Source of the DNA: Vicugna vicugna
Taxonomy: Eukaryota
Assembly: GCA_013265495.1 (NCBI GenBank)
Contig: MU058009.1
Coordinates: 4,158,739 to 4,222,738 of the forward strand
Direction of reading: 5' to 3'
Length of the DNA: 64,000 bases
A model generated the notes under the pieces. It saw only the letters and a list, made by a program, of their open reading frames with translations, searched no databases and had not been told where the DNA came from. Positions 5,670-51,523 of this stretch are shown in pieces (the stretch's first letter is position 1; the number at the start of each line of letters is the position of its first letter). The translations under genes and the position numbers were made by a program.

Positions 5670-5857
5670 AATGGCACCTTCACGCCAGGCACAGCTCTGA
5701 GTGTTTCACAGATATTCAACCCTTAGAGTGACTCGATGAGCAAAGTACTGTTGTTATGATTCCCATTTGACAGATGAGGAAACTGAGGCCCTGAGGAGCC
5801 ATTACACAGGGAACGTGGCTTGGAGCCTGAGTTCGGGATCCACGGACTCTGGATCCT
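5670..5857 (-). mobile_element. MIR SINE
   Basis: ATTCCCATTTGACAGATGAGGAAACTGAGGC is the canonical MIR core in reverse orientation. Confidence 0.85.
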
Positions 5858-10464: not shown

Positions 10465-10590
10465 AGCATGGCACTGTGGTTAACTTTCTGGGTTCGACCT
10501 GGACCCCTCACTCACCAGCTGTGTGACCTTGATCAATGCGCTTAACCTCTCTGTGCCTCATAGGACTATTGTGAAGATTGAGTGAGTGGG
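10465..10590 (+). mobile_element. MIR SINE fragment
   Basis: CTCACCAGCTGTGTGACCTTGATCAATGCGCTTAACCTCTCTGTGCCTCA. Confidence 0.8.
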
Positions 10591-11324
10591 TTTCTGACTT
10601 GAAACAAGGTCATATGACATTACAAATGTTTCAGAAAAGGTGGCAGGGCCAGTGAATGAAATCAGAGGGGGTTACATCCTGCTGCACTTCGGGATGGAGT
10701 GAGCCCTGCTGAGAAGGCTGAGTGGGGCACTGGGGTGGGGGCATCAGGTATGGCTGTGTCTTTGACTGTCAGTTTCCACCTTCAGTCTTCTCACTCGAAC
10801 ACCTTTTACTGGCACTAAATTTGTTTTTGGATAATGAAAGCAGATGTTCTGTTTATGCCCTCACCCCGCTCACCTACACGCCGCGTCTCAAAGACACCTT
10901 CTCTCCCCTCCGGACAGAATCGGAGCACAGCGGAGCCGTGTGTCTGGGCTGAGGCCAGCTCTCAGAGAGCTGGTTTCTGGAGAGCTGCAGCCAGGGAAAG
11001 GTTAGTTAACACGTTACCCGGGCACACCGTAAGTGTGGGAGCCCATCAGATAAACGACCACACCAGCTCACACGTGGATAGAAACACGTTTACTGGAGAG
11101 GAGGAAGCCAGCTCTTTGGCACTGCTGGCTCTGCGGCTTCAGGAGCAGCAGGTGCAGCCCGGGACGGCCGGCGGCGGGGGAGGCGCGAGCAGGCGGGTAC
11201 TTCCGCAGTGCTCAGCACCAGCAGTGGGTATCTGCAAGCAAAGAGGGTGTGTGTGTGAGAGAGAGAGTGACAGTGACAGAGGCACGGAGGTGACAAGGCA
11301 GGAGCAGGCGGACGTGAGACCCCC

Positions 11325-11530
11325 GTGGATCTGGGTTCCGATCCTGTCTCTTCCAGCCAGGAACCGGGTGGCCCGGCCCGTTGAGCTGACCTCTCTGAGC
11401 CTTCGCTTCCTCTTCTGCACGACTCCAGCCATGCTCCATCCTTGGTGCTCTCGTGTCTCCAGATCACTTGTGGTATTTTAAGCGTCTAGCATGCGACTCG
11501 AAACACAAAGGCACTCGATAAATGCTCGTC
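11325..11530 (+). mobile_element. MIR SINE (GC-shifted)
   Basis: CTGGGTTCCGATCCTG...GACCTCTCTGAGCCTTCGCTTCCTCTTCTG...GCACTCGATAAATG. Confidence 0.6.
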
Positions 11531-15313: not shown

Positions 15314-17289
15314 AGGTGCCAGCCCTTCTTGGAGGCCCGAATGGGAGAGGGGGGCGTGATCACGCGGGGGTCCCTTGACATCTTCCTGCAGAAATGAAGA
15401 CGCAGAGGTCAGACACGTCTGACCCTCCAGGAGGCTGGTGGCCCTGGCTGGACTAGAGTTCAGCTGATCACCGGCCCAGGGAGTGGGTGAGCCAGGCCTC
15501 ACTTCCCAGGCCGACAAAGCGCAGCCTCCAAACCTGCCCCTGGCAGGTGCCCTGGGCCCAGTCCCCGTGCGCATCGTCTCCCCAGGAACCCTGCCTCCGC
15601 CTGCGGGCCTGGTTGATTTCTTCCGGGCGTTCCTGGCAAGGATTCCCACCGTTTTGCCCCCTTGTCTCCCGGCTGATTCCCAGCTGCGTTCCTCGGCTGG
15701 ACCCAGTGCTGCCCAGTCTCCCTGGTCGGTCTCCCTCCCTGGGTTCTCAGAGCCCCTCCCGCAGTTGCCGGCTGGGTGGAAAGGCTTCCCAGGTCAGGGT
15801 CTCCTCCGGACGCCTACAGCCACCCAAGGTCCCCAGGCAGCAGCCTGAGACCCGCTCCAGGCTGCCTCTAACAGGCCCGTGACTCCAGGAACAGGGACCC
15901 AGGAGGGAGCCCTCCCCCATCTTGAGGCATCGGCCGCTGGTTCAGTCGTGGCCTCCGAAGCCCAGACTTAGTGCTGCCACTTCTCAGGAGGAGGAGGCCT
16001 TGGTGTTCGCTTCTCCCTGAGGATGCGGTGCGCCCGGCAGCTCCGACGGCGGGCGGCCCTGGCGCGTGTTCTTACGCACGGAAGTGGCTCAGCACGAGTT
16101 CCCGCCTCGTCAGGGCGCTGGCGGCCGGGCTGCGTGTCGGAGCCCCGTTTAGCCGGTGCACTCAGAGCTGGGGTCCGAAGACAGCAGTGACAAGGAGACA
16201 TTGTCTCCAGGGTCTTGTTTCCTTACGTGAGTCTCGCCTGGACTGAGCGCCTCTGAATTTTAAACGCCAGTGTTCTGTGGATGAAGGGGGTGTTCATGTT
16301 TAAGGGCAATGAAATAAAGTATTTGAACTAGCGTCCTTCACTGCTGCAAGGTGGGCAGAGATGGCTTTGTGCTAAACTGATAAACCAGTAAAGTAAAGGC
16401 AGAGATGGGGAGCAATGCAGAAAATGTCTGCCTGCCGCACACGGTGGGTGGAAGCTGTTCACAGAAACCGAAGGCAGACTGTGACGTCCGCCGCAGGAGC
16501 AGCGCCCCGCCGGGCGCCCTCGGGAACGCAGTCTCCGGTCAGCTGCGGGCTGCTGGCGTCCTCCCTCCGTGGGGTCCAGACCCGAGGCTGAAGACTAATT
16601 TAGAAATCGGTGTATTGCCTGCATCGTGTGGTGTGATTACTCTTCTCTGGTTTTACGTGTCTACAAGTGGTGTTCGTGGTCATAACTGCAAACTGTTGCT
16701 CAATTTTTATCGGTCTGGAAAGCCAGTGTTGGTGCTCGAGCACCTGCAAAAGCAAACATTTGCTATGTTGAAAAAATAAGGAAGATCTAAGTGATTTCAA
16801 GATGGCATTTTGTTTACGGACGCTTAAATGCTGCTGGGTTTTTACTTCTTTGGCTGTTAATGCTGCATTGAAGACACAGCCGTGCTGTAGGACTTTCTCC
16901 CCCTTGTTTCTTCTCCTTTGTCTTTCAAAACGTATTCATTCTACTCACAGTGTTTCCTCGAAAATCAAGACAGTCATGCAGTGAGTTCACAGGCAAATAC
17001 TTGTAAAAGTAAAGCATCCCATAGCAATATTAGCCATTTTGTGTCCCACGTAGGAACATTTTGCTTAGCCTTGACATATTTTTGGCAAGCTTTTTACTAG
17101 AAGGGCCAGTGTAGCAGGGCCATCTCGAAGTCCTCAGCACCGCGGTGGTTGGACTCGCCGAAGCTGAGCGTGCCTCCTGCCGCATTTCCGAAGGTCCCTC
17201 AGACCCTGAGTGAGAAATTATTTTAAGTTCCTGGTGGGGAGGGGTTGTGTTTCATTTTCATAGCAGCTTGTAACTAATGGAGTATGTGG

Positions 17290-17835: not shown

Positions 17836-20820
17836 TCAAAGCGAGGTGTTTGATTGGTGGACCCCCGAAGCAGGTACAGTCATTTTCACCACCTCCAGGA
17901 AAGTTGAGGCCATCTGGTTCTGCCTCACCTGGAAGTCATTTACCACTCCAGGTGCAAGAAAAAAATTACCCCGAGGTCAGTAACTAAACCTACTTCAAGA
18001 CGTTCCAGCAGAGCATGCAAGAGGAACCGTGTCAAATAGTAATTCTTATCTGCTTATTTGTGTATTTTTGAGCTGGGAAAGTGAGGGGACACTGAAGCAA
18101 GCCAGAGCCAAGAAGAGTTGGCAGGTGATAACCCAGCTCATTCCAAACAGCAAAGCAAAATCCCTCCATCTCATTCTGAAGCAACTATTTTAATGGTCCA
18201 GTTCTGAATGTCTAATAAATTTGGATTTTATAAAACGGACTTTCTTAAGAATCATGTTTCCCAAGACTGTGGCCGAAGGGCACGGTGTGATGTGGAGGAG
18301 TAAAGAGCGAACTGAGCTGGGAGAGGATACGTTCTCAGTGAGGGAAATCTTTCAGAAAGGCTTCTCCCTCCAAAAATGTATTTTGGCCGTATCCACTTTA
18401 CATAGCAACTGAATGTCTTAGACAGTCTTGTGATCACGTAGGATGTAACCAGCCCTCACCCAAATATAGAAGGTGAGAAGACTGCAGAATCATTAGCTCT
18501 TTGGAGTAGTTAGAAGGATTTATTTGGCTCATGTGACATTGATTTGTTTTGGCTGCACATGAAATGTGTGGTCTTTGCAAGTCAATAGAAATGAAGTCCT
18601 TTATTGAAAAAGAAAAAACTCCATGGAGTGAATTACACAAAGAAACGGAAGGGAAAGTCTCCCAGGCTCCCATGCTTTGTGGGAGTGGATGCCAGGGAGG
18701 AGGGGCTGGGCTTCGAAAGGAAAGAGCAGGGGCTTGAGGAAAGGGGGCAAGTAGGAGCAGAGAGTCCACTTAAAGGACACCAGGGAAAGCGTGGTCTGGA
18801 AGCTGGCGGAACGGAACGTGTGGTCGTGGGGAGTCTGGGAGAAGAGGAGACCAAAGGCCACAGTAGACCCCACTCTTCCAGGAATGCCACAAGCCAGGAG
18901 GGCTGGGAATGGGAAAGCCCTGCACAGTCATGGAGTGAGAGGCCTCGTTTATGAGTCGGGGGATGGAGGGCCAGAGAGGGGAACGCTGGAAAGAAGCGGT
19001 CACGCAGAGTGGAGCCCAGCTTCACAGACCAGACCCAGCTTCAGGAGTCTATCCATCCAGCAGGGCCAGATGCACTCATGGACTCCAGCGTCTCCCTACC
19101 CCACTGCGCCCCAGTGCTCAGTCAGACCCCCATCCTGATACTCCATTCAGTAACGCGAGGGCTGAGGTGAGCGATGCGATGCTGGCCATCCACACTGTCT
19201 TTGGTCCTTGCTCCTTTCACTGGGGTCAGAGCCTGCGAGGAGCGGAAGGGCGGTTCTTTCTCCTGCCTCCCTGGGCTCTGGGGTGGAGACCCAACGAGAA
19301 ACCCCCTTCACGAGCCAGTCTCCCACTGCACCTCCTCTGTGCAAGGGGGTCAGACCCGGGACTTGTGGTCACCCCGCCCCGCTCACCATCATCACCTGCC
19401 GCACCTGCTGGTCCTCCCTCCAGAGGCGGACCCTGAGGGCGCTCACTTAATGTGGCCTAAGAAGCACTGCAACTTTGGGGACAGAATATTCTGTCGCAGA
19501 GCCCCGCAGGTACAGCCCAGTTCACCTGGAAAGCTGGAGTTGTGTGGTCAATTGAGGAAGTGAGACAGAGGCGGAGGCACCTCTTAGGATCAGCCTTTGT
19601 GAGTTACGCACTCATTTTAAGAACCTGATAAAAATGATGATTTTTTTCTCCAGGTAGCGAAGCCCATCTCTGCACCTCAGGTTAAGACTTTCATGCATAG
19701 ACATTTTGTATACGCACAGAAACCCACAACTTAGAAAGGTTACATATGTATGTATGTGTACATGCATGTGTATACATGTGTCTGTGTGTCTGCATGGATA
19801 TCTAGGTATATCTGTACGTCTGTTAGATACGATAGATGTGCATACAGATAGATAAATGCGTATGTTTTGCTAAATTGCAGTTCGGTGAGGCATGCGTTAC
19901 CCAAATAGAAACAGGACGTAGGTCTCAACAGCCCTTCAGGATCTAAACTGAACAAGAGTGAGTAATAAGCGGAAGCGAAGCCGAGGCAAGTTCGCGGTGA
20001 CTGTCAGCAGTGAGGAGTCAGTGGCGAGGCTCCCTCAGTGCGGTGACTCCTTCAAGAGAGGATTTGAAGCCACCGGTCTGGGCTGACTAAAGCCCTGGAT
20101 AACACGGCGCAGGAGACAGACCTGAGGACAGCGGGAGGAGCGGGCGGAGGAGACGGGCAGATGCGACTCTCTGAACCCCCGGGTTCCCTTCCGTTTCATC
20201 TTTCTTCAGACTGACACCTTTCCTTTCCACAGGGAAGGCGGCTTAAGTAGCCATCACCTCATAGGTCAGGACATCATATCTCACTATTTCAAATGGATGA
20301 ACATCTCATAGAAATACTGCATTTCAGTTGTTTCCCAGCACATGACTCACCTCATGTGTGTTTCTGCGTTTCTGCTCAGCTGTGAGGTGTGGTGCAATGT
20401 TACAGATTCACCGTCACACCTGTAAGGGTGTGCGCATACGCTGGAATCCTGAGGACACATTTGTCTCTACTCTCAAAAGGACAGATTGGGGAATTGCATG
20501 GTGCCTCCAGCCTGTCTGTGCACAGGAGTGGATGGCTCTTGGAGCGGCTCACGCAGCTGGCCGTCCGATTGTTCGGATCCATGAAAGGCAGGCTTTGTAA
20601 ACGTGGCATGCACTCCCCGCCGTGGACACTGTGGCATTTCATGATCAGCGCCCTCAGAAGAGATGCCAAGCTCCACCGTCCTTCCTGGAGTGGCCCTGCG
20701 TCACTCGGCGACCCCCTCCCCTCCCCTCCCCCAGCATAGACACATGCAGCGCCTTCCTGCAGTTGGCGCGTCACGTGGGCCTGGCGGCCTTCCTGCCTCC
20801 TCAAAAGTGGGCTCAGGCCA

Positions 20821-20948
20821 GGGGGAGGGGAGGGCTCAGTGGTGGAGCTCGTGTTCAGCGTGCAGAGGTCCTGGGTTCAATCCCAGTGCCTCCTCTAAGA
20901 ATACATAAGTGAATAAACTGAATTACCTTCCTGACCAAAAATACGTAA
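20821..20948 (+). mobile_element. tRNA-derived camelid SINE (Vic-1-like)
   Basis: GGGGAGGG..GCTCAGTGG (A box), GGTTCAATCCC (B box), AATAAACTGAATTACC, A-rich tail; TSD-like pair AAAAGTGGGCTCAGGCCA (20803-20820) / AAAAATAGGCTCAAGTCA (20949-20966). Confidence 0.85.
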
Positions 20949-22003
20949 AAAAATAGGCTCAAGTCAGCAAAGCACAGGATTTGCAAACGCTCTTGACCAG
21001 GCCCCCTTCCTGGAGCCTCTCCAGCAGGGTCCCAGCCCTTCTGACTGGTCAGTCCACCACCGGCTGCCACCCGTCTGCAGCCTGGGAGAGGGTGTGCTGG
21101 GCCAGACTTCACAACCTTTCCGCAGATTCCAGCTCATACCGTAGAGTCCGGAGCCCCTGGCGTGACACCCGGGAACGTCACAGGCTGACCTCCCTGAGCG
21201 TGCGTTCTAGCCTCACAGCACGAGAGTGAAGGGTCAGGGGTCCTGGTGGGGGTCCTGGCTTTCTCTCTCCCTTGCTGTCACCGAATACGGGGTTAAGTTC
21301 AAGGCAGGGAGGAGGTGTGTGGCAAACCCCGGCTGCTGTCCTCACAGCCCGGTAAGGCGGATGCTGTAGCCTCCACTGCGGAAACGGAGCTCAGAGGGGC
21401 CCACACGCTTGTCTGTGGACACACGGAGGCACTTCGCTGGAACTCGGATCCGTCTGCAGCAGCACCTGACTCTACCCCGGGGTGTGCGGCCTTTCCTGTC
21501 TCTGCCTGTGTGTTCTTGGCAAGTCTCTCTCTCTCTCTTTTTCCCCCCAATATCAAGTTGGGGGAGGCGGTGGGGGGTAGACCAGACCAGTGATTTCCGG
21601 TGTTTCTGTAGCTCTCCCGTGTCTCACGCGAAGTGCGATCCGAAGATGCTAGAATGGCCCTAAAGGGCGTTGGCCGCAGTGTTCTAGTTGTATCCCTCGG
21701 CCAGCTGTGGTCCCGGGCACCACTTCTCAGCACCGGGAGCCTAGGGCTTCGGCCACAGTGAGCCCCGTCCTCCCCACGTCCGTGCCTCCGCCTCGCCCAC
21801 CCCCCACCCCCGCTCTCTGCGCGTCCCCTCCACCCGGCGAGCAGTCCCAAGGCCCCGACGCTTCGTTTGAGTCTTTACTGTCGCCAGTCGGGGTCAGAGT
21901 TACCTGGCTAGTCGTCCTCTTCTGAGCTCTTTGAGGGAGAATCAGAACTTTATTTTAGCGACTGAATGTTTTTACACATTATATTCCTTTGTTTTCTGGA
22001 GTC

Positions 22004-26050: not shown

Positions 26051-26683
26051 TGCAGTGATTTTCTGGTACAAATGGCTCCCAGATTGCATTACATTAGTTG
26101 TAAGTTTTCCAGAGTCCCTGGCACCTCTGATAAAAATGAGCTTTGGAAATGGTAGACTATGAATATTGTAAAAAGGGGAAATGGCTTCTCTTGCTCCCCA
26201 GAGAGGCACTTGAGGAATGTGGGGCCGCTGTCTGACATGGGGAGAGACTCCGAGTGCCCTGACCTGGAGCGGTCCTTCAGCTCTGCAGGCCGGGACCCCG
26301 CCAGGCTAACCATTACGGTCAGCTCAGCCTGGACATACAGCACCGCCGAGTCATCTGTCCGGCAGTCCCAGCTCCGGTGTGGCCCAGGGCTGCACCTGGA
26401 GGCTGAGGTAAGTGTGGGGACGCCCGAGCCCCCCCTGCCGTGGACGCCTTCACCCTCTCTCATCTGCAGTTTCAGGACTCCGCCTTCGCCCCTTCGGTCA
26501 GCTTCCGTCTCTGGCCACAGACCTCTTAGGAGTCTCACAGGCTGTCAACCGACGCGCACTCCGGCCCTCCCCTCAGGTCACAGACCGCAGAGGACACGGC
26601 GGGACTGCGGGGGCTTCTGTAGGGCTCTGGGGGGGCTGGTGTGATTTGGATGTGTGCTATCTGGCCCGTCACCGTGGCGGTTC

Positions 26684-26781
26684 TAATTGGCTGAGGATGA
26701 GTCTTGAAATGTCATAGAAAGATTTATCTCTCAGCACAGATTGTCCCTCAGCTAATTTTGCAATAGGCCACGGGATAATGG
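26684..26781 (+). repeat. Dispersed 98-bp paralogous non-coding element, copy 1
   Basis: Ungapped 73/98 identity to 38291-38388 by manual alignment. Confidence 0.9.
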
Positions 26782-28097
26782 ATTGTTCGGAAAACAATGC
26801 CGGGTCTCAGTGGCCTTTTGTTTTGGAACGAACTTGGTAGCTTCTTGAAGCGAAGGGGCCTGTGGGAAAGAAAGCCGTGATGGGCTGGGCGGCAGCTGTG
26901 CGCTGGGGACCACGGGCCTCGCTTGCGAGGGGCTGGCTGCGTCTTCCTCAGGGTGCCGTCCCTGTCCTTGTGGGGACTCATCAGACAGGTGGGGGGAGAA
27001 GCCTGCCGAGGGAGTTAGGGCTCGAGAAGACATATGGGGCTTGGCATCTCGGACCAGTTCTATCAGCGGCAAGGATTAATTTCAGAGAAGATATTTCATG
27101 AAAAATGGACTTCCCCCACTCTCTTTTGGTGTCCCAGGCAAATATAGTTTGTTGATTTGAAGGTGCCATCAACTGTAAGCTGCTTGTTGATTTAATAACA
27201 GCGTTTCAGGGCTGGGAGACGTGGGAAGATGGGTCCGTGTGACTTGCACATATAGACTACAAGATAAATTTCTGATTCAGAAACGTGAACATGTGAAGAC
27301 ATATTCTGTAAAACTGGGGGGAGACAGTGTTTTTGGTGACCCAACAGCAAAAGTCCCACACGCGTTTTGCCCCCAAATCTCCTTCCAATGGGGTCCCCAG
27401 CTTGGGACTGCGTTTCTTAAAATAGGACGGATTTTATTTTTTACTGGGTGTTTTATATGTGATTTTGGATTCAGACAAAGCCCCTGTCATCTTCAAACAG
27501 CTCTGGATTTTCTGAGCTATTATTAGACTGGAGAGTATAGATAATTGCAATCCACACAGAAAGCTAAAAATAAAGTGTTTATTCATTATCTCTGAAGATT
27601 TTTTTTAGCACATGGCATTTTTCCAAAAAGATGTACAAGTGCTTGGATGAAAGGGCGACTTTCTCCATAGCCCACCCTCCCCTGGAAGTTTGACAAAAAA
27701 GCAGAACAGCCACCAGGCAGAAATCAGGACAGAAGAGAAAGTGCGCACACGGTCTTATTAATATGTCTCGGAAAGATTGAGAATTGGGTGCAAATCTAAT
27801 TCTTCTCATGCGATAGGCAACCTTTGTCTTGCTGGCATTTACCTGAACGGAGGTAAATGTTGATGGCGTCGGCGGGTGTGTAGTCAGTGGGTGTTCTCGT
27901 CATTTATTTTTTTGAACAAAAGACACGGTGGCATCGATCTCCGCGTCCGTCCCCTACTAAGTGGCTGCGGGAATCTGACCTACTGGGCGCGTCTGGTTGA
28001 AACAACTGTCCCGCAGCTGCGACCTGCTTTCGGCCACAGTCCTGCTTGCTCAACACATCGTTTCTTCATCCACAGCCTCTCCTTGGTTCTTGTCAAC

Positions 28098-28320
28098 CGA
28101 GGGTCAATGCCCTTTTTCTACAAAGGGCCAAACGTCCGTATTTCCAGCTTTGTGGGCCACGCTGTGTCTGACGCAGCTCTCAGCTCTGCCCCTGAAGCGC
28201 GGCCCCGGGGGTGAAGGGCGCGCTGTCACGGAGGCATGGCTGTGTTCCGGGACAGCTGCCTGTGCCGAAGTGGCGGGCGGGTGGGGTCTGGACCACGGGC
28301 TGCGTTCGCTAGCCCCACTG
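28098..28320. mobile_element. MER58A-like hAT-Charlie DNA transposon relic
   Basis: TTTTTCTACAAAGGGCCAAA...CTTTGTGGGCCAC...CTCAGCTCTGCC...GGCATGGCTGTGTTCC...TGGACCACGGGCTGCGTTCGCTAGCCCC follows the recalled MER58A layout. Confidence 0.8.
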
Positions 28321-28751
28321 GGCCCCGAGGTTGGAGACGGAATCCACGGTCACCGCTGGGACTCGAGGGCCGAGTCCGTGGGAGGCGGGGCACAGCCCGC
28401 CGGAGGCAGCAGCCCGTGCAGACGAGGGAGCCGGGGGGGCCAGCAAGCGGACGAGGTAACGAAACCACGTCAACGCGGGGGACAGACCATTTGACAAGGG
28501 ACAGCCTCCCTGTGGGGGCACGTCGTTTGTAGGGTTTTGAGTAGGAACACAGGTTATTGAGACCCAGGCCGTTATTTTCTAAGAACTGTTGCGTTCCTCC
28601 CTCTGCCTCACTTTCCTCATTTATGAATTCCCGGCAGCGCCTGCCTCATGGGGCTGTGCTGAGGGTGAGGAAGCGAAGGGTCTTCTGTGAACCGGCGGAG
28701 CGCACCACACGTCCACGACACCTTGTTGTCAAAATGTTGTTTTTGACGCCA

Positions 28752-28880
28752 TTTTACTTTTTACTTTTATTTATGTATTTGGGGGGAGGTAATTTTATTT
28801 ATTTATCTTTAGTGGAGGTGCCGGGAATTGAACCCAGAACCTCGTGCTCGCTCTCCCACTGGAGCTGTACCCTTCGCCCC
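28752..28880 (-). mobile_element. tRNA-derived camelid SINE (Vic-1-like)
   Basis: T-rich tail, GGGGGGAGGTAATT, TGGAGGTGCCGGGAATTGAACCCAG (reverse B box), CCACTGGAGCTGTACCC; TSD-like TTTTGACGCCA / GTTTGATGCCG. Confidence 0.85.
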
Positions 28881-29559
28881 GTTTGATGCCGTGTCATCAC
28901 CCATCTCTAGTAGCCCTCACGTTGGATTGGAAGTGACCAAACTTCGTAACAAACGTAACAGAAACGTGAGAAAGAGTCTTTGAAGAGAGCTGGGTGGACT
29001 GCAACGCCAGGCCTCTTGCGTCTGCGTAAGAGAGAGCGTCTCCAAGTCGCTGGCAGGCTGAGGCGGCTGTCTTCCCACCCAGCTGATGTGAGAAGCCGGC
29101 GTTTAATACCCACATGCTCCCCCACCAGGAGAGCTGTCATCGCAGCGCCAGCCCCGGGGCCTGCTGATAACACGTGATCAAGCACAGGGTGAGCGTGTCT
29201 GGGCCCTCGAAGAAGCGGGCAGGCACACTTAGGGGCTGTTGTCGCTTTTCAGAAGCTTTATAAACATCTATTGACAAATCCGATGAGGAACAAACTGGGA
29301 TAATTAAGCTGTTACTTGTGCAGTCCTCTCCGATTTAAAATGACCATTGGAAACGTAGGCTCCATTTCCGTTGACCCAAGTCAGATTTCAGTGGCAGTTC
29401 AGAGTTCTAAGGAAAGGCGTAACTGCCAAGCAGGAGCCGCAAGAAGATGACACGGGAGCAGCTCACCCTTGCAGGGCCTTTAAAGCCGGGGCTGCGGCGG
29501 GCGCCCTGGAGCCAGCCCCCCACCCAAGCCCACGATAAACTGCCGGACCTTCGGAGGCA

Positions 29560-29700
29560 GTAACTCTCTCGTTTCGCAGAGAGGAGGCGGAGACTCCGAG
29601 CACCTGAGTGTCTTTCTCAAGGCCGTCTGGCTGGTACGTGGCAGAAGCAGAGTTCAAGCCCAGGTCAGTCTGACCCAAAGCCAGCGTTTCATTTCCCAGG
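29560..29700 (-). mobile_element. MIR SINE
   Basis: TTTCGCAGAGAGGAGGCGGAGACTCC...GTGGCAGAAGCAGAGTTCAAGCCCAGGTCAGTCTGACCCAAAGCC. Confidence 0.75.
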
Positions 29701-30569
29701 CAGCGACCTTTACATTGTTTGATTGCTTGCATCCCCCGGTAGAAAGAACAAACCATACAAAGTAAAGCAAAGAACAGTAATTAAAGAGCGCGCTTCCCCT
29801 ATCATGTATACGGGCGCACACACAATGTGTATTTGCAAATCATTCATAATACATGCCTTTTCATTAACAGTATAATGGTAATAAGCTCTGTTATTTCAAT
29901 ACGTATCAGGCAAATTATCAAACGTTTACCAAAAAAAAAGTAAGAAGGATGCACTAAAAATAAATACAAATGGAAGAAACTTTCTTCCTTGCATCAAATG
30001 GTGGGTGTACTTTGCAGACCTCTGCGCTGGACCGCCCCGGCAGGCCAGACACGTCGGGTCCAAGGATGTTGTGTCTCCCTGGCAAAGTGAGTTTAATCTT
30101 GGCGTGCAGCCTGACACAGGCGTTACCCCGCAAGAACCCCGGATGAGTGCGGCAGGGCCTGGTGAGGGCGGCTTATCCCTCAGCAAACCAACGGCACGTG
30201 TGGCAGAGCAGCGCCCAGCCCCCTCTGAGCTGCTCAGGCTGATGCTGCCGTGCACCGCCCGGGGTCCTTGCAGGGGCTGGACGGCCCCCACCGCAGGCTC
30301 TGGCCATTTCAAAAACGAAGTGCTTTTTTCCAGCACACAAATATCTTGCTAATTAGCAATTAGCCATCCAGGGGGAAGGAACAGAGGGAGACCGGGGATC
30401 TGAAATGGTCTCCCAAGAGACATGAAAAAAAAACAACCCAACAACAGCACTTGAAGTAAGGCAGATAGAAATGGGGAGCGGCCTCATTTGGGCAAGATGT
30501 CTCGAGCCGTTTCTCTAGATGTTTTAACTTCGGTGAAGGGCCCCGATGTATTCTGCCAAGTGCTTTTCC

Positions 30570-30735
30570 CTTTAATTTTTAAATGCATTCAAATTTCAAG
30601 GGGAATTTAATCCGTATGTTCCTGGTTCTTTTACACTTAACTCATCAAAATGTTGTTCTTTAAGAGCTGTTTGATCTATAAGGCTTATGAGCCTTTGTTA
30701 TAAGCCTTTTCAAAACCTCTTTCCCCCTTTTGAAT
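30570..30735 (+). repeat. Ancient conserved element, MER135-like
   Basis: TTTAAATGCATTCAAATTTC..AATTTAATCC.TATGTT..TTTACACTTAACTCATCAAAATGTTGTT..TAAGAGCT.TTTGAT resembles my recollection of the MER135 family; hairpins present. Name unverified. Confidence 0.5.
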
Positions 30736-33439
30736 CAGCACATGGAACTGTGCCAGTTCTGAATGGGGTCTGAAAAAAGAGAAGTCCGAGTTCAGGATCC
30801 AGGCAGAGCCTCAAGGGCGCCCGGGCTGACTCTGCAGGGACGCACACTTGGCCCTTGCCTGGGAGGAGGACCAGCAGCTTCCGGAGCACTCCGCCAGGGA
30901 GCCGGGCTCGGAGGGAGCCCAGAGCGGAGAGGCAGCGCGCCGCAGGGGGCGTGCAGGTGTGTGGAGCACCAGGAAGCCTTGGACTTAGGCCTGAGGAGCC
31001 ACCCCGTCCATCCCCCCAACCCGATGACATCCGTGACATGTAGTAACGGTATCAGCCACAAAAAGAGGGAACTCCCAGGGCCCCGGCTCCACCTCCAGCT
31101 GCCTTCCTGTGCCTCACGAGCACCATCGCCCCCCGTCCTCATCACTCTGCGAGGGGCGTGGACGCAGTAGCATTTAGGACCCGCTGACGTGGCTCTGGAT
31201 CCCAGCACCCGCGTGGTGAACGCCAGCGCATGAGGGAAGTTCTTCAGTCCTCCCCCGACCCTGCCTCTGCTGCTGGGCCGCCACCAAGGCCACTACGGCC
31301 CCCACTGTCTCGGGGGGCAGTCGCCGTTCCCACTGGTAGCCGCGGTTGTTCGAAAGGTGTCCCTTTTTCGGTTTGTTTTTGTTTCTGTTTCTGAGTCAAA
31401 ATCTCCTCCCTTGCTAATTATAGCCGTTACTTCTACACTAGACGTAAGCCAGCTCCTCTTCAGCCTCTCACGCCTGAACGTGGCGACGCCCAGACTTCTC
31501 CTTTCCAGGGTTGACAACCCGTCTTTCCGAGGGGCTCCCGTTTCCCGGCCTCTGTCCCTCCGGTTGCTCTGTGCTGATGCACTAGGACGCGCGGAGGTCT
31601 GGCCAGGGTGAAACTCAGTGGAAACCTACCCACTTTGGTTTGGGTTTAATACCCCAGTTAATATGGCTCTAGGATCCTCTAGCTTGTGGAATTCATGTTC
31701 CAGCTTTTTGTTCATTTAAAGTTGATGGCCGCTAAGAAGGTTTTGGGTTTTTTTTCCCTGTGACTTGTTCAAGGCAGAGCCCCACCTCTGGTACTTCTGC
31801 AGTTGGTTTTTTGTTTCAAAATATGACGCTTTCTTATAGACTCTGTTGAACTGGTAACAGTGAAGAGGGATTTAATGGGGAAATGCATATTATACCGAGT
31901 ATTTAGATGTTAGGTGGGGATGTGATCAGACGGGACCAGTTTCACGAATTCCTGCTCGTGTGTTAACTAAATTCACAGCCCTCAGATCTTGAGCCTTCAA
32001 AGCCTCATTCTGGAGTCCTTGTGAAGCTCAGGTGAGTTTTATCATGAAAGAGCACTGAAAAGCCCGCCGCCCGCGGCCCTCCCGTCGGGCAGGCAGCCGA
32101 GAGCGAGCTCACAGCCCGTGCAGGGCACCTTTTACTTTGCCAAGTGACTAAACGTGCAGTCACTGCGGCAGGCGTCCGCCAGCTGTGCCCACACGGCTCA
32201 CCCAGCTGGACCACTTTTCAGAGAAGAGACAGGGCTCATCCACCTTGTCCTGGTCCTAAAGTCCTGTGCCAGAAAGATCAGCGTTGGGTTTGAACGTGTG
32301 CATGAACCTCCAGCAGCCGTGCGCAGGTGGCTCCACTTGACGGAGGTGGTGCTTGTCCCCCAGGCCCACGGGCGACCTCTGGGGAGCGCTCTGCCCGCTG
32401 CTGGGCACTGCGCAGAAGTGGCGAGACCCAGGGGCCGACCACGGGTCCTGCTGGTGAGGCCTGCCATCTGTCCACTTACCTTTTCCCTGCATTTCATCTC
32501 TGCATTCTCCTGGGCTCTGGCAAGCCCTTTAAGCTTCACTGACCTATTCTGCCTGTGAGCTGGGAAGTCCCTGCAGGTCCTTACTTAACCTGAGAGCTTT
32601 CCAAATGCATCTCCATGGAAATTTCTTCTCTTGCTAACAGCCCTGGATTTGGATTTTAATCCCAGAAAACTGTGAAATGTGCGTGTTTTATAGGCTGCTT
32701 TTGAGAGGTTGCATGGGAATCGAACAGTCGGGCAGCTCGTGACAAGTGGAAGTGAAGAGCATTTGCTAAGCAGGGCACCTGCCGCCCTAATACGTACCCA
32801 GCCCAGGGCCGGACCTGGACACCAAACACAGCTTTACGGCAACAGTCCCTTCTCAGCCCGGAGGGCTGTTTACTGTGGTGGAGGGACACACGTCCTGATA
32901 AGAAGGAACAGACGTATGTGAGAGAACATATTTTTGGGTGCCAAGGAATTTGGTAGAGGCTCTAAATTCCGTGGCCCCTGACGTAAGGAACAGCAGGCCA
33001 CAGGCCAGACTAATCCAGCAGGCAGGGAAGGATCTGGATGGGATTTAGAGGGTGCGAGAAGTGGTCAGATTTGGGAATGAGGATGTATTGCTGAGAAACT
33101 CTCTTGTCCGTGGACACCAGACACGCAGACAGGCTCATACAAGCACCGCAGAAACTGTAAGCCCGCGGCCTTCCGTCCTCGGGTCGTTCCCTGGAAACTG
33201 GAAGCGGCGGGGCTGCCGTTGCCAATAGCGATGGACACTGGCATCTTCCTTGTAAGACCTTCTTCACTTCCCAACAAGATGAACACCACCCCTTTTCAAA
33301 GCCAGAGTAACTCTTTGAATCTACTAACACTTGTCTGAACTGACACCCGGAGTAACCAGAAAAACAGTGTGTGGAACATCCCAGTGGCTGGCGGGAGGAC
33401 GGTGAGGAGCACCGGTATCACCTGTGATTTCCGGAGCCC

Positions 33440-33640
33440 TTGCTGTGTGCTGCGCACGCGCCCCAGGGCCACGTGCATGTGCACGTGGTTTCACGTAATC
33501 CTCACGACGACCTCTGGGGGCGGTAGCGGTATCGTCCTCGTTCACAGACAAAACAAGGTGCTGGGAGACTGGGGGCGGGGAGTGAATGAGTGATGGGCAG
33601 AGGCTGTGGACCACGTGTTCTGACTGCAGAGTCAGACCAG
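33440..33640 (-). mobile_element. MIR SINE (GC-shifted)
   Basis: TTTCACGTAATCCTCACGACGACCTCTGGGGGCGGTAGCGGTATCGTCCTCGTTCACAGACAAAACAAGG. Confidence 0.7.
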
Positions 33641-33899
33641 CATTTGAACAGTGTGCTCTGTGTGAAAAAGTCATCGAGTCTGCATAGCCGACAACCATGT
33701 GCAAAGACCCTTCTCCTGTGAGGTCCCCTCTGTCCTTCTCGACTGTCCTGAGGAACGGGGAGTGCCGTGGCCATAGGAAACGGAGGCCAGGAGAAAGCCC
33801 CCTGAGGGCAGCAGTCTTCCCTCTGCTCCTGCCTGAGCCCTGCCCTGAGTGGTGACGGCTGAGCAGACGCTCTGCCCATCAGTATCTGTACCTTCCTTC

Positions 33900-34720
33900 T
33901 CCAGGGAGCTTCACGGCCCTTTCCTTTTAGCTCCCCTTCCATGCCTGTCCTCTGAGCTTTGCCGTCGCGCCCAGTCAGTCCTCCAGTTCAACCTGCGGGT
34001 CAGATGTCCTGTGCGCTGACCACAGACGGCCCCCTGCCCCTGCCCTGCTTGCTCCTTCAGCTCATGCTCTTGCTGGACCATGCTCAAACTGAGGATTCTT
34101 CGAAGGCTGTACTTGCCCTCAGGACCTCAGCTTCCTCCTTCCCCCTGCAGGGGTCCAAGTCTTCATCTACTGTTGCCAGTATCCTCAACTCCTTATCCCA
34201 CTGTCCTTGCCTCAGGCTCTCCTGGCAAAACTCAATTCCAGAAAAATTACATCGTGAGCATCCTCCCGGGCACTGCTGGAGAAAATCATACGGTTACTGA
34301 TGGCGGTGTCTCCGTAAATGCATCATCTCTAACCTTCTCTAGACCCACAAACAAACAAACACCAAACCCTGGCGATTCTGAGCTCCCCCGTTTCTGCACC
34401 TCTCCCGTCCACACGACGGCCATCTCCAGCCTTCCCGTAACGCCTCCCCCTCCCCGAGGATTACGTGGCCTCTAACTTGGCCTGTCTCCCTTTGGCAAAC
34501 TTCTTTTGAGACTCAGCTTAAACATCATTCCTCAACGAGGCTCTTCCTGATAGGTTTCCTTAGCTTCCTGAGTATAACCCACACCACATGTTTTCATTGC
34601 TTAAATTTCACCGTTATCTCTGTTTCTGTTGGTAAATAGCATGAGCTGCGTCTTCAGCAAGTGCATGGTCTACTAGGCCCCTCATACGGTTTTGCTGAAA
34701 ATAGATGAATGACTGCATCA
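33900..34720 (+). mobile_element. L2 LINE 3' portion (decayed)
   Basis: Pyrimidine-rich L2 body, TGAGACTCAGCTTAAACATCATTCCTC..., terminal TGCTGAAAATAGATGAATGA. Confidence 0.6.
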
Positions 34721-37700
34721 GTGAGTGAAGAGAAGCCACACACATACCGTCATGGGAGAGCTGTCACGACCTCCCGCCGCCGGAGCTGGGCGTCCTCCTT
34801 CCTGTCCGTATCCTGTCTTCTCGCGAAGGAAAGCTGTCCCCCCCGCAGGCTCTGCCTTCCCAGGAGGAAGGGCCTTGCTCACTTCCGGCTTCCCGGTCAC
34901 CGTGCTTAATAATCCTTCTTCTCCTCAGGCCTTCGATCTCTTCCTGTGGTTACTCTTCAACCGTGAAGCACGATCATATCTATTTCATGTTTAAGATGAA
35001 ACCCTCCTCTGGGTTCTGTGTCCAGCTTCTGTCTCGTCTCTTCCTAGGCATTGTATGTTCTGGCCGTTCCTTCTCCAGCTCACATTTGGTCCTCACTGTG
35101 TGTGACCTCTGGCCCCATCGTGTCAGAGAAGCCGTGACCTCTGTGGCTCTGCTTCTTGCGACAGTCACGGAAACGCGGGTGCCTCCCTGGGCTCCGTGGG
35201 CGAGCCTGTTCCTCCTCCCGGGGTCCAGTGCCGTCTGTGTGCTGCTGACGCCCCAGTCAGTAGCTCCAGCCTGGTCTCCTCCCTGCCCCTCAGGCACTGT
35301 CCTTGTCCCCGCGGAGACCCACAGACAGCTCGGGCTCAGTGGCTCTCAGCTGGTTTCACCGTCTTTCTCGCAGACTTGCTGCTCATGCAGAGATCGCTCA
35401 CCCGGAGGACAAAGTCAGACAGCTGGGTGTCACCCCAGCCCCTCTGTCTCCTTTCCCACATGTCCTCCAACCCTGGGCCTCTCCCCGCTCCCGCCTGCAC
35501 CTGGCTAATTCAGGCAGCCTTGCTCTCTCTTTGGGATTGACTGTCGTGGCCCCTGACTCGCCTTCCCGCCCGAGGCTGGGCCTGGTCCAGTCGCTCTCCA
35601 TGCTTCAGCCAGAGAGGGCCTTTGGGCTGAAATTTTGATTCTGCCTTCCATTGTTTAGAACTTCTCGTTGGTTTTCTCCTTGTGCTCAGGACAAAGCCCC
35701 GTCTCCTTAGCCAGGCTGCAGGGGCCCCACGCCTCTCCCCGTCTGCTGTCTGAGAAGACGTGTCCCGGGAGCTGTGTCTCACCGTCGTCCTCATGTCCGT
35801 GCCCTCCCGCCCCACCAGCATGTGGCTCACAGCTCACGTTCTGTTCTGGCAGCACCGAACTGGTTCCAGCTTCCTTGCACGCCCTCTCCTGCCGGGGGGC
35901 CGTGCGTGCGGATCCTCCTGTCTGACACCGGTCAGAAGGTCTGTCCTAGTCACACGCGCTCGCTGCGTCCACGTGTTACGGTGACAGAGCACATGGTGCA
36001 CTAGAAAGAGCACACGACCTGGAGGCAGAGACCTGGGGCACCCCTCCATCCGCCATCTGTCCGCCCAGCGGTCCAGCAGACGCCGGATCAGGCGTTCGCC
36101 CACTTCCTTCCTCCAAACACTTCACCTGGTTGCTACCTACCTGTCTTCACGGTGCACGTCAGTCCTCAGCTACTCCAGAGTACCTTTCTCACACACACAC
36201 ACACTCCCCTCTTTTTAGAAGTCGCATTGTACCCTGAACTTACTCATCAGAGCAGCTTCCGTCAGTCAACAGGTACGTGTGGAGTGTCTGTCTTGCACAA
36301 GGCACTGTGCTGGCACTGGCCACCCTCCGCACGGCGTGGCTACTGCTGTCCGCTGGCGTGTTCTGTGGCGGCTGGGACAGCCGCTCTCTGCTCATGGACC
36401 ACGGCACATCCCCGAGTAACGTTTGTCGCCTGGCTGGCTGGGTGGAAAGACCAGAGAGCGGGTTGGCAGGTCCCACCTCTGGTGCCACATCCTGTGCTGC
36501 TGTGCCCAAGGCTCCCTGCATTTCCATGACAGGCCTTCTCATCCCCTCTGGGAGGCACCGGCCAGTCTCAGGGGGGCCCGGCCGTCCCGGCTCTGCTGCT
36601 CTGGTGTCCCGATCATGTTTCTCCCAGTGAGCGTCTCAGCCCTTCCTGATCCTCGCTGTTCCCTGTAGGAAGGCCCAGAAAGCGCCCGACAGGCCCTGCA
36701 GCTGCGGGATGAGGCAGGGCTGGGTCCTTTGGCTGCAGTTCAGCAGTCCGTGGAGGACACTGGACTCCGGGTGTTGGTAAATAGAGGCCCCTTTCAGCAG
36801 AAGCACAGCAGGCTTTTCCTCCTCGTTTATTGTGATGATGATTATTATTTTTGTGGTTCCCATGGAAACAGCTGGAGTGAGAGAACAAGAAAGTCAGGGA
36901 GGTTAGAGTGATGAGCAGCCCCTGTGCTTAGGAAGACGGAGCACCTGCGCTTGCGCGTGTGCGTGTGCACGGCACTCACTTTGTTCCCAGCACACCGCTG
37001 GGTCGGGGGAAATTGCGATGTTTATTCACAGCGTTTGTTACAATCGGGCTCAACCAGGAGACAACTATGAGCTTTCAGCAGTTAGGGAGCCTTTGTAATG
37101 ACGGCTCCGCCTGATTAACGGCGGGGGAGGGAGGCCGGGACGGAGACGTTCGGCAGAGATGGAGGAGGGCCCTAGAGGGAGACATAACGGGGAGACAGGA
37201 CCACGGCTCAGCACCGGGCCCTTGCCCTCAGTTTCCATCGGGATCTCTCTCAATGCCTCCTGTTTGGCCGGGACTCGGAGTGGCAGCTGCCCGGAGCCCT
37301 TCACCCCTAGGCTGCTCTTGTTCCTGCTTCTCCAGCCTTTTGGATTCTTTCCCAAGTTTGGGGGTCGGGAGGGAAGCCAGCCCATGCAGGACCCCTTCGG
37401 GGAATGGCCGAGCAGATCACCGACATCTCAAGCCGGCAGGAGCAGGTCGCGGGGACCCACCCCAAGCAGCACTCCTGCCACTGTCTTCCCTGCGGTCCTG
37501 GGGGGTGATCCAGCGACACCCTCAGTACCCTTTGTGGCCTTAATGATCAGGAAGCCCTAGGATCTAGGTGGTCACTCCACCACGAAGGCCTAGAAAGGAG
37601 AGGACTTGAAGTCCCTGAGCTAAGCATGACCGGCATTTGCGAGGAGGGGACAAGGAAAGGAGCCGAGAGGGCCCACCCGCGCCCTGTTGAAGAGCCGGGG

Positions 37701-38290
37701 CTTCTGTCCAACCGTCCTTGCACCTGGCTGTGGTCCAGCATCCCCCCTCACTCGCACGGTCACCTGTGCCGCTTCCAGACTCTCCACCGGCTGTTTATCA
37801 ACTGGCAGGGCAATCTTAGAAGACGCATGTTCCAAACACACGGAACCCCAGCACCCTGGGGCACTGAAGACTGCTCAGAGCAGTCACACCGCCCTGGCCC
37901 CAGACACCAGGAACGCCCACCTTGGACCGCACCTGACCCCAGAGATTTCCGTCCTGTTAGCCACTGGCGTTTTTCAAGTTTACTAATATCAGCTCTTACT
38001 CCTCCCTAACCAACAGAGCTCTACAGCAGGGACATGGGGCCATTTCTAAGTCACCCCCACCACCTCGTCAGCCCCTAGCTGCCCTTGCGCCTCTCGGACT
38101 GAGTGCAGCCGAGCCTGAGTGACAGGTCCCGTCTCACCGCCCCACCCCCTCCTCCTCCAGCCAGTTATTCGCCCCCATACCTTTCAGGCTATTTTTTCCC
38201 CTCTGAATGATTTTTTTCCCTTTCTGACCAGTGGCCTTTGATTGCAAGGAGCAGCTCAGTTACACAATCCCAGAGTAGCAGAGTGTGTTG

Positions 38291-38388
38291 TAATTGGCCG
38301 GGAATCGGTCTTGAAATGTCAAGGAAAGATTTATTTCCTCGCACAGCCTCCCTAGGTGCTAATTTTGCTATAGGCTGCTGCATAATGG
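38291..38388 (+). repeat. Dispersed 98-bp paralogous non-coding element, copy 2
   Basis: Ungapped 73/98 identity to 26684-26781. Confidence 0.9.
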
Positions 38389-40927: not shown

Positions 40928-43900
40928 CTTCTGCAGCCTGGACCATCTTGATCTCAGCCAGCAGTGTCCGCGGGATCTACTAAACATCCGTGTGAACTCT
41001 GGGATGGAGTTTGTTCAGGAACGATAGTTTTGTCTTCTTTATAAAAGCAGCGAATCCCCTGGAGGGGGCCGGGAACCCTCGCCGTCTACCGCCTGCAGAA
41101 GCCACTGCTTATCTCTGGGTGACAGCCTGCCTTTTAGAGACCGTGTCTTCATTAGCCCAGTGCTATCGAAACTGAGATTGCAGCAGTCACGAAAAATCCA
41201 ATTGCAAACGAAAGTTAAGGGGAGAGAGGGCTGCTGACCGGGCCCCGGGCGTAGGGTCTCTCCTGAGCTGGTCGCTGGCTGCAGGCTGCTTGGTGGCGGC
41301 TGGCTGAGATCAGGACAATCAAATCCTGTTTTGTTCCCCTTGGAAGGACTCTTAGAGCTCTTTTAATCTGGCAGCTTTCAAATATTTTTGTTAATTTTAT
41401 GACATGTAACTGATTCTTATGCTAGTCAGGGTGCTCTGAGGGTTTCTGTTCCATCCTATTTAATTTATTAAAATCGTCGCAGGTTAAAAATCATCCAGTT
41501 GATCGGTGCCCCAGGACTCACTCACAACGTGAAGACTGGGTAATGGTGATCTAGCTTGATTCTTGAGTTTTAAAAAGTTGAGGGCGGAGGGCAACGAGGT
41601 GCAGAGACTTGGTTGTCAGTGTCAGACTTGTCATTAAACTCTTCCCGGAGCCCCGTGCCGTGCCGTCAGCTGAACCCCGTCCCTGCAGGACAGCTCGAGG
41701 AGCAGGAGGGCGCCCCCTTCAGTGGGCGCGGCTAGCACATCTGTGCTGTGCCCTCTGAGCAGTTAGGCGCTTTCTCTTACACAAAGTTCTAGGGACAGCC
41801 CAGGACCAGCCAGCACCCTGCATTCCCGGACCCGAGCAGTGGGGGCCACGGTCCCAGCCCCCGGGGCTTGTCCTGCCCCATCACCACCCCGTCCTCTCTC
41901 TTTGACAAACTGCTTTGCCCACATGGCACCTGAGCTGGGTTTGGACTCACCTCTCTGGACCCACCGAGGTGACACAGTGTCTGAAACAGGAGGTCTCATG
42001 GAGACTATCATTCCAAGGTTTTTTAAAAAAAGACAGCACGTGGGACACCATGACAAGCATTTCTGGCTTTTTGTGCCTGTGTTTGCATATTTTTAATGTC
42101 CTGGAAGGGGTTTTCCAAATGAGCGCCCCCTTGTAGGTAACTGCCCCCATCTGTCTCCTCTCTCTGGCTCTTTGAAGCAATCTGTGGACCAGAACAGCGC
42201 AGTCCCTCCCCCCGGCACTGCCGGCCACTTTGGAGATGTGCCCTCAGTCCTGTTTTCCCGGAGTTGACTCCTCCTCACCCCGACGCCTCATTTCCTTTGC
42301 CCCCGACACGTGGGCGCACGTCCCTGAGCGGCCACAGCCGCAGAAGCCAGCTTTGCACAGTGAGCCGTCGCCCACCTGGCCGCCTTGGGACAGGTCTCCT
42401 CTGCTTGCTGGGGGAGCCCCCACCCCGCTTTCTCTTCTCCGAATGCCCCCTACCAACCCTCACCCCCCTCTTACACACCCGGACGCTGAGCTGTGTTTAG
42501 GCAGGGGGGTGGCCATCAGCTGTCGTTTAATGAACAGTATCGCTGTCAGATTTTTCCAAGATGAAATTTCATCAGAGGCTGAAGGAAGATGCTGTGTGGA
42601 AACTACAGAGGGAGACTTGACAGCCTTTTCAATCCAGTTATCAAAGCATGTGTGGTTCTGAGCAGGTGAAACACTAATGCCATCGTAGTCTTAGCACCGA
42701 ATGCTCTTTTGCATCTGATGTCTCAGTAAATAAAATGGGGTGGGGAGCATAAAGCAGACCTGTTGTCTCCAACCCGCTAAATTTAATATCCAGAGTATTG
42801 ACTGACAGCTTTTTATCACCGTAATTAGTATGGATCGTTCCTCGGGCCGCTGATCAATCTTCCCTGCCTCTGCGGACTGGGGTTCCCGCTTTCCTCCTCT
42901 CGTGCCCTCCCCACTTTTTATTTTAAGATTGATCCTGCCAGTTGCGACCCACCGCGGGGAGGCTGCTCACTTAGACAAAGGAACCCCGAGGGAGGGGAGA
43001 GGCGGGGCGCCCACGGCAGCCCCTCCCGCCTGGCACCCCACCTTGGCCGTCGCAGCCTCGCTCTCCGTGGTCTCCTGGCCTGATCCCGGCTCCCAGGGAC
43101 CTTGGCTTCTCTGATGTGACCGTGCACGCGTCTCTGCCTCTGGGTGGGAGCCGTGTGAAGACAAGCCACAGAGCCAGTGGTCAGTAGGTACCCGGCGATG
43201 GACACTCCTTCTTTAAGGTCACCAAGCCAAGCAAAGGATGGAGACTGGACAGGCGGATGAACTCAGCTCTGTGTGTGTGTCTGTCTAAGAATGAATGCCA
43301 TCTGTGCCCCATAACACAGACCAGAGACCCAGGGCCACCTTCTCTCTCGTCAAGGCTTTCCAATCTGATGTCCTAACTCTTTCATTTCCTGCCCGCCCAT
43401 CCCTCTGTCACCAGCGATAGCACTGGGTTCCTCACCAGCCCTTCCTTTAACTGTCGGGGTCACTTACGTCTCACCGCCTGCCTCCTGTCCTGCCTGGGCC
43501 GACCTCAGCCTCCCACCCTTAGGTCCTCTGTGTAGGTGGCGAGCAGATGTATGGAAAACGCACATTCTTGGGCCACCCCTGTGTATTTCCTGTCCAAGCT
43601 GCTGGTCACAGCGCGGAAGCTCTCTGGAGCTGGACCCTCCCCGCCCAGAGTCCCTCTGCCCACCGCTCCGCCCTCTGTAGCCCCTCCCCCTCCCCACCTG
43701 CCTCACACCCCGCCTTTGCTCAGCTTGTTCATGGCACCTGTGATGGCCTTCCTGCCTCTTCCCCCTCGGCCGCTCTTTCTCCTCCCTCAGGAATTAGCTT
43801 AGATGGCAGGTCTTTCCAGAATCATTCTTTCAGCCCCGAGAGTCCCCTGTGAACGCCTGCTGTCTGTCCTCTGAGATTTTTGAGGAATACGCACGTTTTC

Positions 43901-45480: not shown

Positions 45481-45742
45481 GGTGCCATGTCCCTCCTCCC
45501 CAGGCCAGACAGCGTCCCTTCAGATGGCCTTCCCACGGGCAGATCCTCCCCCGCAGGGCCTTTGAACTTAAAATCGTTTATTAATAATATGAATAATACA
45601 TTAGTTAATTGCTTATTAATAATATACAGTAAGTCATGCATATGATGTTTGCACACATGTATGCATGTTGTTTATGAATGGATGTGAGCATGTGCACCAC
45701 ATGTTTGTAGCAGACACTTCTGAGTGAGGAGAACATGAAGAA

Positions 45743-50635: not shown

Positions 50636-51266
50636 GCCGAGACGGCCCTCTGCAGGTGCAGATGTCGGGAGCAGACCGGCACTGAAGGGGTCTTCCTCGT
50701 CTGTCGTGCCCACTGTAAGGCTCTGGACGGTAAGTGAGAGAAGCCAGTGTTTCTCAGCATTTAGACCAACCAGTTACACGTCTTGAAAGACAAGTTGCGT
50801 CAAAGGGTGCAGCTAACTTACTGGGGGCGGAGAGGGGATACAAGAGAAGAAAGAGAAGAACAGAAAAAGACATTTTCAGAAACCATTCATTTAGTACGTG
50901 GCACTTGTTAGAAAACCCCTTGAGTTTCGCTGAATCAACGGAAAGTGGTATTAGCCGAGACGGCCCTCTGCAGGTGCAGATGTCGGGAGCAGACCGGCAC
51001 TGAAGGGGTCTTCCTCGTCTGTCGTGCCCACTGTAAGGTGCTGGACGGTACATGAGAGAAGCCATTGTTTCTCAGCATTTAGACCAGTTACACGTCTTGA
51101 AAGACAAGTTGTGTCAAAGGGTGCAGCTAATTTACTGGGGGCGGAGAGGGGATACAAGAGAAGAAAGAGAAGAACAGAAAAAGACATTTTCAGAAACCAT
51201 TCATTTAGTACGTGGCACTTGTTAGAAAACCCCTTGAGTTTCGCTGAATCAACGGAAAGTGGTATT
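50636..51266 (+). repeat. Head-to-tail tandem duplication (317 bp + 313 bp)
   Basis: 50636-50952 vs 50954-51266 differ by 7 substitutions and one 4-bp indel. Confidence 0.95.
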
Positions 51267-51419: not shown

Positions 51420-51523
51420 TATATGTATGTATATAACTGAATCACGTTGCTGTACACCTGCAACCAACATTTGTAAATCAACTACATTGCAATAAAAAAC
51501 GAGAATAAAAGAAGATACAAAAA
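51268..51523 (+). mobile_element. 5'-truncated L1 3'UTR (cetartiodactyl-type)
   Basis: GGGATTAACAGGTATATCTACTATATACAAAG...GGACCTGCTGCACAGCACGGGGA...ATAACTGAATCACGTTGCTGTACACCTG...AAATCAACTACATTGCAATAAAAAA; TSD-like GAAAGTGGTATTT / GAAAGCGATGTTT (10/13). Confidence 0.9.

Follow-up and report, generated by a model that had tools for sequence, protein, structure and literature searches.

Why would two short stretches of non-coding DNA, 11.6 kb apart and embedded in unrelated sequence, carry the same seven blocks of identical bases at the same distances from one another? The question is raised by a 64,000-nucleotide stretch of the Vicugna vicugna genome (assembly GCA_013265495.1, contig MU058009.1, positions 4,158,739 to 4,222,738 of the forward strand), which we refer to as the window and whose own numbering is used below. 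The two stretches, here called copy A and copy B of a 98-base module, are a real pair and share a common ancestor. Judged from their sequences, they are probably constrained and functional and most likely belong to a kind of element already known, and it is probable that they represent the cores of two old dispersed-repeat insertions kept as cis-regulatory modules, in other words putative enhancers.

Copy A occupies positions 26684-26781 on the forward strand, with similarity reaching back to about 26680, and copy B is found 11,607 bases downstream, at 38291-38388, with matching orientation. The two align without a gap and are identical at 73 of 98 positions, as an earlier note on this DNA had described. 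A blastn comparison within the window joined 26680-26781 to 38287-38388 (102 columns, 74.5% identity, expect value (E) 2.3e-15), and an nhmmer search of the window using 298 bases around copy A as the query reached copy B with E 4.2e-13. The 25 differences comprise 13 transitions and 12 transversions (distance 0.31). Beyond the module the similarity ends sharply: in-register tiles of 20 bases showed 13-18 matches in all five tiles inside the module and 1-8 matches in all 16 tiles outside it, and no second collinear piece emerged when the 700 bases around each copy were compared by blastn. The G+C content is 41% in copy A, compared with 66% and 59% in its flanks, and 45% in copy B. When the 300 bases to either side were screened by 8-mers, each copy showed a few direct and inverted matches in scattered positions, none of them where a target-site duplication or terminal repeat would lie; no poly-A tail was seen at the copies by eye, and none of the 25 tandem-repeat rows listed covered either of them. 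These results bear out the statement of the earlier note that the flanks are unrelated. In a read check that took in copy A only (301 bases around it), 19 of the 24 sequencing runs listed held 0.91-1.00 of 23 sampled words, the five runs at 0.00 counting as no evidence; when 11 runs marked as a possible source were excluded, eight runs from three studies still held the stretch. The holders in this read-run search were all near-identical (three organisms, 0.91-1.00 of the words). Since copy A is carried by independent runs, it is not an assembly artefact, and the 25 differences between the copies exclude a collapsed or doubled contig.

The seven blocks stand at identical offsets in both copies (0, 17, 33, 50, 67, 79 and 91), again as previously reported, and the intervals between block starts are 17, 16, 17, 17, 12 and 12 bases. 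Together the blocks comprise 63 invariant bases, while the spacers match at 10 of 35 positions, a near-random value that is biased low because the spacers were defined after the fact. Clustering of the mismatches was indicated by a runs test (p 0.012) and by the number of bases lying in runs of at least 6 (p 6.5e-5; 200,000 shuffles), both p values being inflated by the end blocks, which delimit the alignment. Once these two blocks were left out, 59 of 84 positions matched and a two-state model gave states with about 100% and 41% identity; none of 150 shuffles attained its likelihood ratio of 7.9. Given that the mismatches are concentrated outside the blocks rather than scattered, constraint on the seven blocks is likely. 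This is the half of the earlier argument against neutral decay that held; the other half, which relied on the absence of gaps, proved weak when taken alone. The probability of finding no insertions or deletions (indels) under neutral decay is 0.02-0.22 over the 98 bases and 0.005-0.35 counting the spacers only, on assumed substitution-to-indel ratios of 8-20 to 1, and an L1-like pair elsewhere in the window aligns over 205 ungapped bases at 78% identity, although its origin in a reading frame makes it an imperfect control. Inspection by eye suggests that small offsetting indels may be concealed in two C+T-rich spacers. Since zero indels by themselves are weak evidence, the fixed spacing, or 'rigid grammar', that had been proposed appears plausible from the alignment rather than established by it.

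Block 1 (26684-26691, and 38291-38298 in copy B; all blocks are given on the forward strand) contains a TAAT core overlapping a TTGGC half-site, which we take to be of NFI type. The word TTGGC is present in block 1 of both copies and in 81 of 647 background tiles, scored as the 5-base core word and not as a matrix, and a full palindromic NFI site occurs in neither copy. Block 2 (26701-26714; 38308-38321) is the longest invariant run, with 14 bases found only twice in the window, and forms an imperfect dyad, the arms of which span 5 bases in copy B. Block 3 (26717-26727; 38324-38334) ends at its 3′ side in GATTTAT, a word with six occurrences in the window, two of them in the two copies, and its 5′ portion complements the beginning of block 2. 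Block 4 (26734-26739; 38341-38346) is a common word of 6 bases (90 occurrences in the window) that closes a predicted hairpin with block 1. Blocks 5 and 6 (26751-26768; 38358-38375) are separated by one base, and block 5 begins with 7 bases that repeat block 1 in inverted form with one mismatch; of the 7-base inverted pairs in the copies (13 in A, nine in B), this is the only one common to both. As an alternative, copy A has an inverted repeat of 12 bases (26685-26696 with 26746-26757) that pairs at 11 of them; copy B keeps only 7 bases of it, those inside blocks 1 and 5. Block 7 (26775-26781; 38382-38388) holds the third TAAT core. It was also observed that in copy A the same 6-base word ends two successive spacers, which gives the 5′ arm two alternative partners. 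The partial complementarity of the blocks to one another is a point absent from the earlier note, whose motif labels survived in part. The three TAAT cores per copy compare with 0.38 expected per 98 bases, but the MEIS and PBX-HOX labels rest on partial matches: TGACAG and TGATTTAT, which we take to be the canonical MEIS and PBX-HOX sites, respectively, occur in neither copy, and the shorter TGTCA occurs 140 times in the window.

A short core with sharp ends and unrelated flanks, in which invariant blocks alternate with scrambled spacers, argues for two old insertions that have been reduced to their selected part. The 'old exapted repeat family' that the earlier note had offered as one of two options is thus our best reading as well. 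According to this reading, two separate and very old insertions of one dispersed repeat family would have occurred, the remainder of each insertion would have decayed past recognition, and selection would have retained the cores as compact cis-regulatory modules. The blocks would then be predicted protein-binding sites, namely the three homeodomain-type TAAT cores, the NFI-type half-site, a TTTAT core and the central dyad; we presume the TTTAT core to be of posterior HOX/CDX type, and the other block labels are likewise our assumption. Homeodomain factors, NFI and a factor reading the central dyad may bind together on each core, which would make spacing matter, and a developmental gene, lying around the window or beyond it, might be controlled by both copies as distal enhancers, with mesenchyme as the probable tissue. 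It is from the observed homology and block-wise constraint that we infer such binding, enhancer activity, tissue and target.

As to the family, we lean slightly towards MER121, which was reportedly first described by Kamal, Xie and Lander in 2006. The block words may resemble the MER121 core; the comparison is with published descriptions only, and we do not file the module under that name. Otherwise it would belong to another ancient family of the UCON/Eulor/MER kind. MER121 is classed under hAT in Repbase (PMC5753468) and labelled 'DNA, TcMar?' in Supplementary Data 4 of PMC6904449. It evolves more slowly than expected of neutral sequence, with low substitution rates and copies kept at orthologous positions across mammals (PMC2689173), and hundreds of exapted copies with short, more conserved motif-like subsequences have been described (PMC3826495, which writes 'MER21' and cites Kamal 2006); in that account, the motifs inside such copies were without experimental proof of binding as of 2013. 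MER121 copies are reported in an enhancer state in mesoderm-derived cells near SOX9, BMP4 and FGF10 (PMC6904449), as limb enhancers (PMC3757057), with limb or appendage links (PMC4158753) and in uterine regulatory elements (PMC4447085), and enrichment near developmental genes is reported as well (PMC6904449, PMC4158753). Exapted paralogues in which common motifs persist have been described as a class (PMC3428314). The vicugna pair is like MER121 in being non-coding, in consisting of diverged copies with common short invariant blocks, and in lying in a setting where no coding exons were found. Among 926 human MER121 copies, 413 carry the NFIC motif MA0161.1, the only motif given for the family in Table S4 of PMC3649963 (13 of 13 rows), and the TTGGC of block 1 provides an NFI-type half-site in both vicugna copies. 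Two features of MER121, the half-site and the conserved internal subsequences, are present here, and both are unspecific for the family. A string search with the block words did not find a MER121 consensus in print: no paper contained at least two of six block words, and the papers listed for six longer block words were, by title and start of abstract, not on such repeats. The consensus was also absent from the supplements of PMC3649963 (files 1-12 and 18-20) and PMC6904449 (all six), although other files or figures could hold one.

The same features are found beyond MER121. Short conserved cores lacking recognisable transposon ends are typical of UCON, Eulor, MER130, MER135, AmnSINE1 and LF-SINE, and such ancient exapted repeats are often enhancers of developmental genes (PMC5753468, PMC3757057, PMC10637000), MER135 being responsive to homeobox factors (PMC10637000). 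The conservation of sites and distances, and not of the sequence between them, is the pattern predicted by the enhanceosome model (PMC3826495); unlike in that case, the pattern is seen here between two paralogues only, and the fixed distance is not statistically established.

Several points weigh against an origin in an old repeat family, or against MER121 as that family. Only two copies are known, both within the window, where a search with the two-sequence profile found no third. Pattern scans of viral contigs and of bacterial and archaeal genomes gave zero matches, and four metagenome matches were all confined to the pattern itself (34-45 of 98 positions identical) and were rejected as chance; since the scanned collections hold no vertebrate genomes, these blanks are uninformative on copy number. 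If 926 copies were spread evenly over 3.0 Gb, the next copy would lie within 11.6 kb with a probability of 0.36% (3.3 pairs genome-wide), so that the short distance calls for either local copying or a cluster of copies near a developmental gene. The two copies share 98-102 bases, compared with 401 positions in the MER121 model (PMC4229909), although decayed arms would not show. No DNA-transposon ends, whose survival would not be expected, were detected within 300 bases of the copies. The NFIC motif fills 409 rows across many families in Table S4 of PMC3649963 and, being so common, is weak evidence for MER121. The pair also departs from MER121 in the closeness of its two copies and in a hairpin in the core, a feature unmentioned in what the papers cited above state about MER121.

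This closeness could also be explained by an old local duplication of an enhancer, yielding a shadow-enhancer pair whose duplicated flanks have decayed and which has no wider family behind it. The pair does look like duplicated shadow enhancers, in that two similar non-coding stretches with short, highly similar cores lie close together, and its separation and common orientation would be rare for evenly spread copies, although two copies would share an orientation by chance half of the time. Among mouse shadow-enhancer sets, homology of the enhancer body is present in 31.9%; of such pairs, 31.5% lack detectable flank homology and 68.5% retain a flank match (PMC13345019). Here the flank tiles stay at background identity on both sides of the module and no second collinear piece was found, so that the flanks lend no support to the duplicated (shadow) enhancers suggested in the earlier note, and we regard a local duplication as unlikely. 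It is less likely still that both copies are neutral fossils of an old repeat, whose blocks would be chance runs or slowly mutating A+T-rich words. The proportion of transitions and transversions and the distance between the copies are unexceptional for old repeats, the lack of indels alone is not significant, and no orthologue was seen; however, the mismatches are clustered, with near-random spacers beside 63 invariant bases, and decay that scrambled the spacers would not have spared the blocks. Convergent assembly of the same sites, or an artefact of genome assembly, is the least probable explanation and extremely so: we found no point in its support, and the common order and offsets of the seven blocks (E 2e-15) argue against it, as do, in the case of an artefact, the differences between the copies and the independent runs that hold copy A.

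The internal pairing of copy A suggests a further alternative, namely that the module has, or formerly had, a role as a structured RNA or as an extruded hairpin of DNA, with blocks 1-4 kept by mutual pairing and block 2 presented in a loop. As RNA, the forward strand of copy A is predicted to fold with -33.8 kcal/mol (z score -4.67), a stability reached by none of 200 shuffles. Most of this stability comes from one 18-pair hairpin predicted at 26688-26738, in which block 1 pairs with block 4, the start of block 2 pairs with block 3 and the remainder of block 2 lies in the loop. It makes use of G-U pairs and is much stronger on the forward strand, with -21.6 kcal/mol compared to -12.5 kcal/mol on the other strand, and the first 56 bases of copy A rank second in stability among 508 G+C-matched tiles of the window. 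The single tile that folds more stably, at 18537-18592, reaches -22.7 kcal/mol. Sixteen of the 18 pairs are still feasible in copy B, two via changes on both sides and two via G-U, a retention that random placement of the substitutions in the arms gives with a probability of 0.009. The helix was, however, a post hoc choice made on copy A; if the changed positions are kept as they are, the probabilities become 0.31 and 0.42, and the pair counts of copy B were reached by 60-120 of 500 shuffles, the upper figure being that for the both-sided changes at two of 18 pairs, which come from two sequences only. With two sequences, covariation for the 18-pair helix did not reach significance. Copy B itself prefers another fold (z score -0.87), in which the pairs of copy A have probabilities of 0.01 or less, and its energy in the fold of copy A is -9.9 kcal/mol versus -14.1 kcal/mol for its own best fold. 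In addition, a second hairpin of copy A is broken at six of 14 pairs in copy B, and blocks 5-7 are equally invariant without having a common stem. No Rfam family matched the window at its gathering score, and the best matches around the copies had E 0.42 (18.5 bits, the cut-off being 90) and E 1.1. Readings of the copy A hairpins as an H/ACA small nucleolar RNA or a precursor microRNA were rejected because of the missing Rfam support, the loss of the second hairpin in copy B and a loop better conserved than its arms. On these predictions we consider a function as structured RNA or extruded DNA quite improbable, about as much so as the neutral fossils, and read the hairpin as chance or as the possible remains of a symmetry within the ancestral element. 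It is unlikely, to about the same degree as a local duplication, that the module is the core of an unnamed ancient family, or of a named one with an unnoticed pairing of its blocks, combining protein sites with a hairpin in RNA or extruded DNA that places the 14-base block in the loop. Were such a fixed-geometry family to exist, its natural variants with constant spacing would be a ready test set for enhancer grammar and for constraint on conserved non-coding sequence, and the copy A hairpin is a cheap extra hypothesis to carry to a family alignment.

If, as we think probable, the copies are the selected cores of two old repeat insertions, the gain is small: they would add two copies to a class described since 2006, and their human orthologues are probably annotated already. 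What remains useful is the pairwise pattern of kept sites, scrambled spacers and unchanged distances. Two copies lying 11.6 kb apart in one regulatory landscape would also be suited to clean tests of redundancy and spacing.

The window around the module is G+C-rich (42-63% per 2 kb). No Pfam match was obtained in 150 of its 602 stop-free frames of at least 60 amino acids, those most protein-like by amino-acid composition, a small exon being possible in the 452 unscanned and the shorter frames. Reading of 5400-13400 and 15500-54400 by eye revealed many short A+T-rich islands bearing TAAT, together with pieces that we take to be L1-like and short interspersed element (SINE)-like, so that the setting resembles a regulatory desert or a large intron. 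Islands with both TAAT and TTTAT were seen by eye at 6440-6730, 16590-17070, 18430-18640, 27540-27920, 29700-30000, 42500-42830 and 45570-45700, and are further candidate conserved non-coding elements. The segment 27751-27820, about 1 kb downstream of copy A, weakly resembles blocks 2, 3, 5 and 6 with altered spacing; as a third copy this look-alike (27759-27820, 4.6 bits, E 1.7) was rejected as chance, since its score was matched or beaten in 16 of 40 shuffled windows.

Among the repeats, two L1-like 3′ fragments on the reverse strand (9297-9764 and about 54270-55182) are 78-88% alike and contain remnants of peptides like those of the second L1 open reading frame (ORF2), with no Pfam match. 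Short SINE-like inserts at about 28760-28875 (reverse strand) and 20830-20950 (forward strand) presumably resemble the camelid SINE derived from transfer RNA. An inverted pair of 44 bases (51426-51469 and 54015-54058) is 86% complementary, and we take it to represent two opposed L1-type 3′ ends. The window contains 298 N letters, and simple tandem arrays at 2633-3201 and 62214-62604 (4/8/12-base and 22-base units, respectively) each surround a run of N. Finally, 50636-51266 is a young tandem duplication with a period of 314, its two copies being 96% alike.

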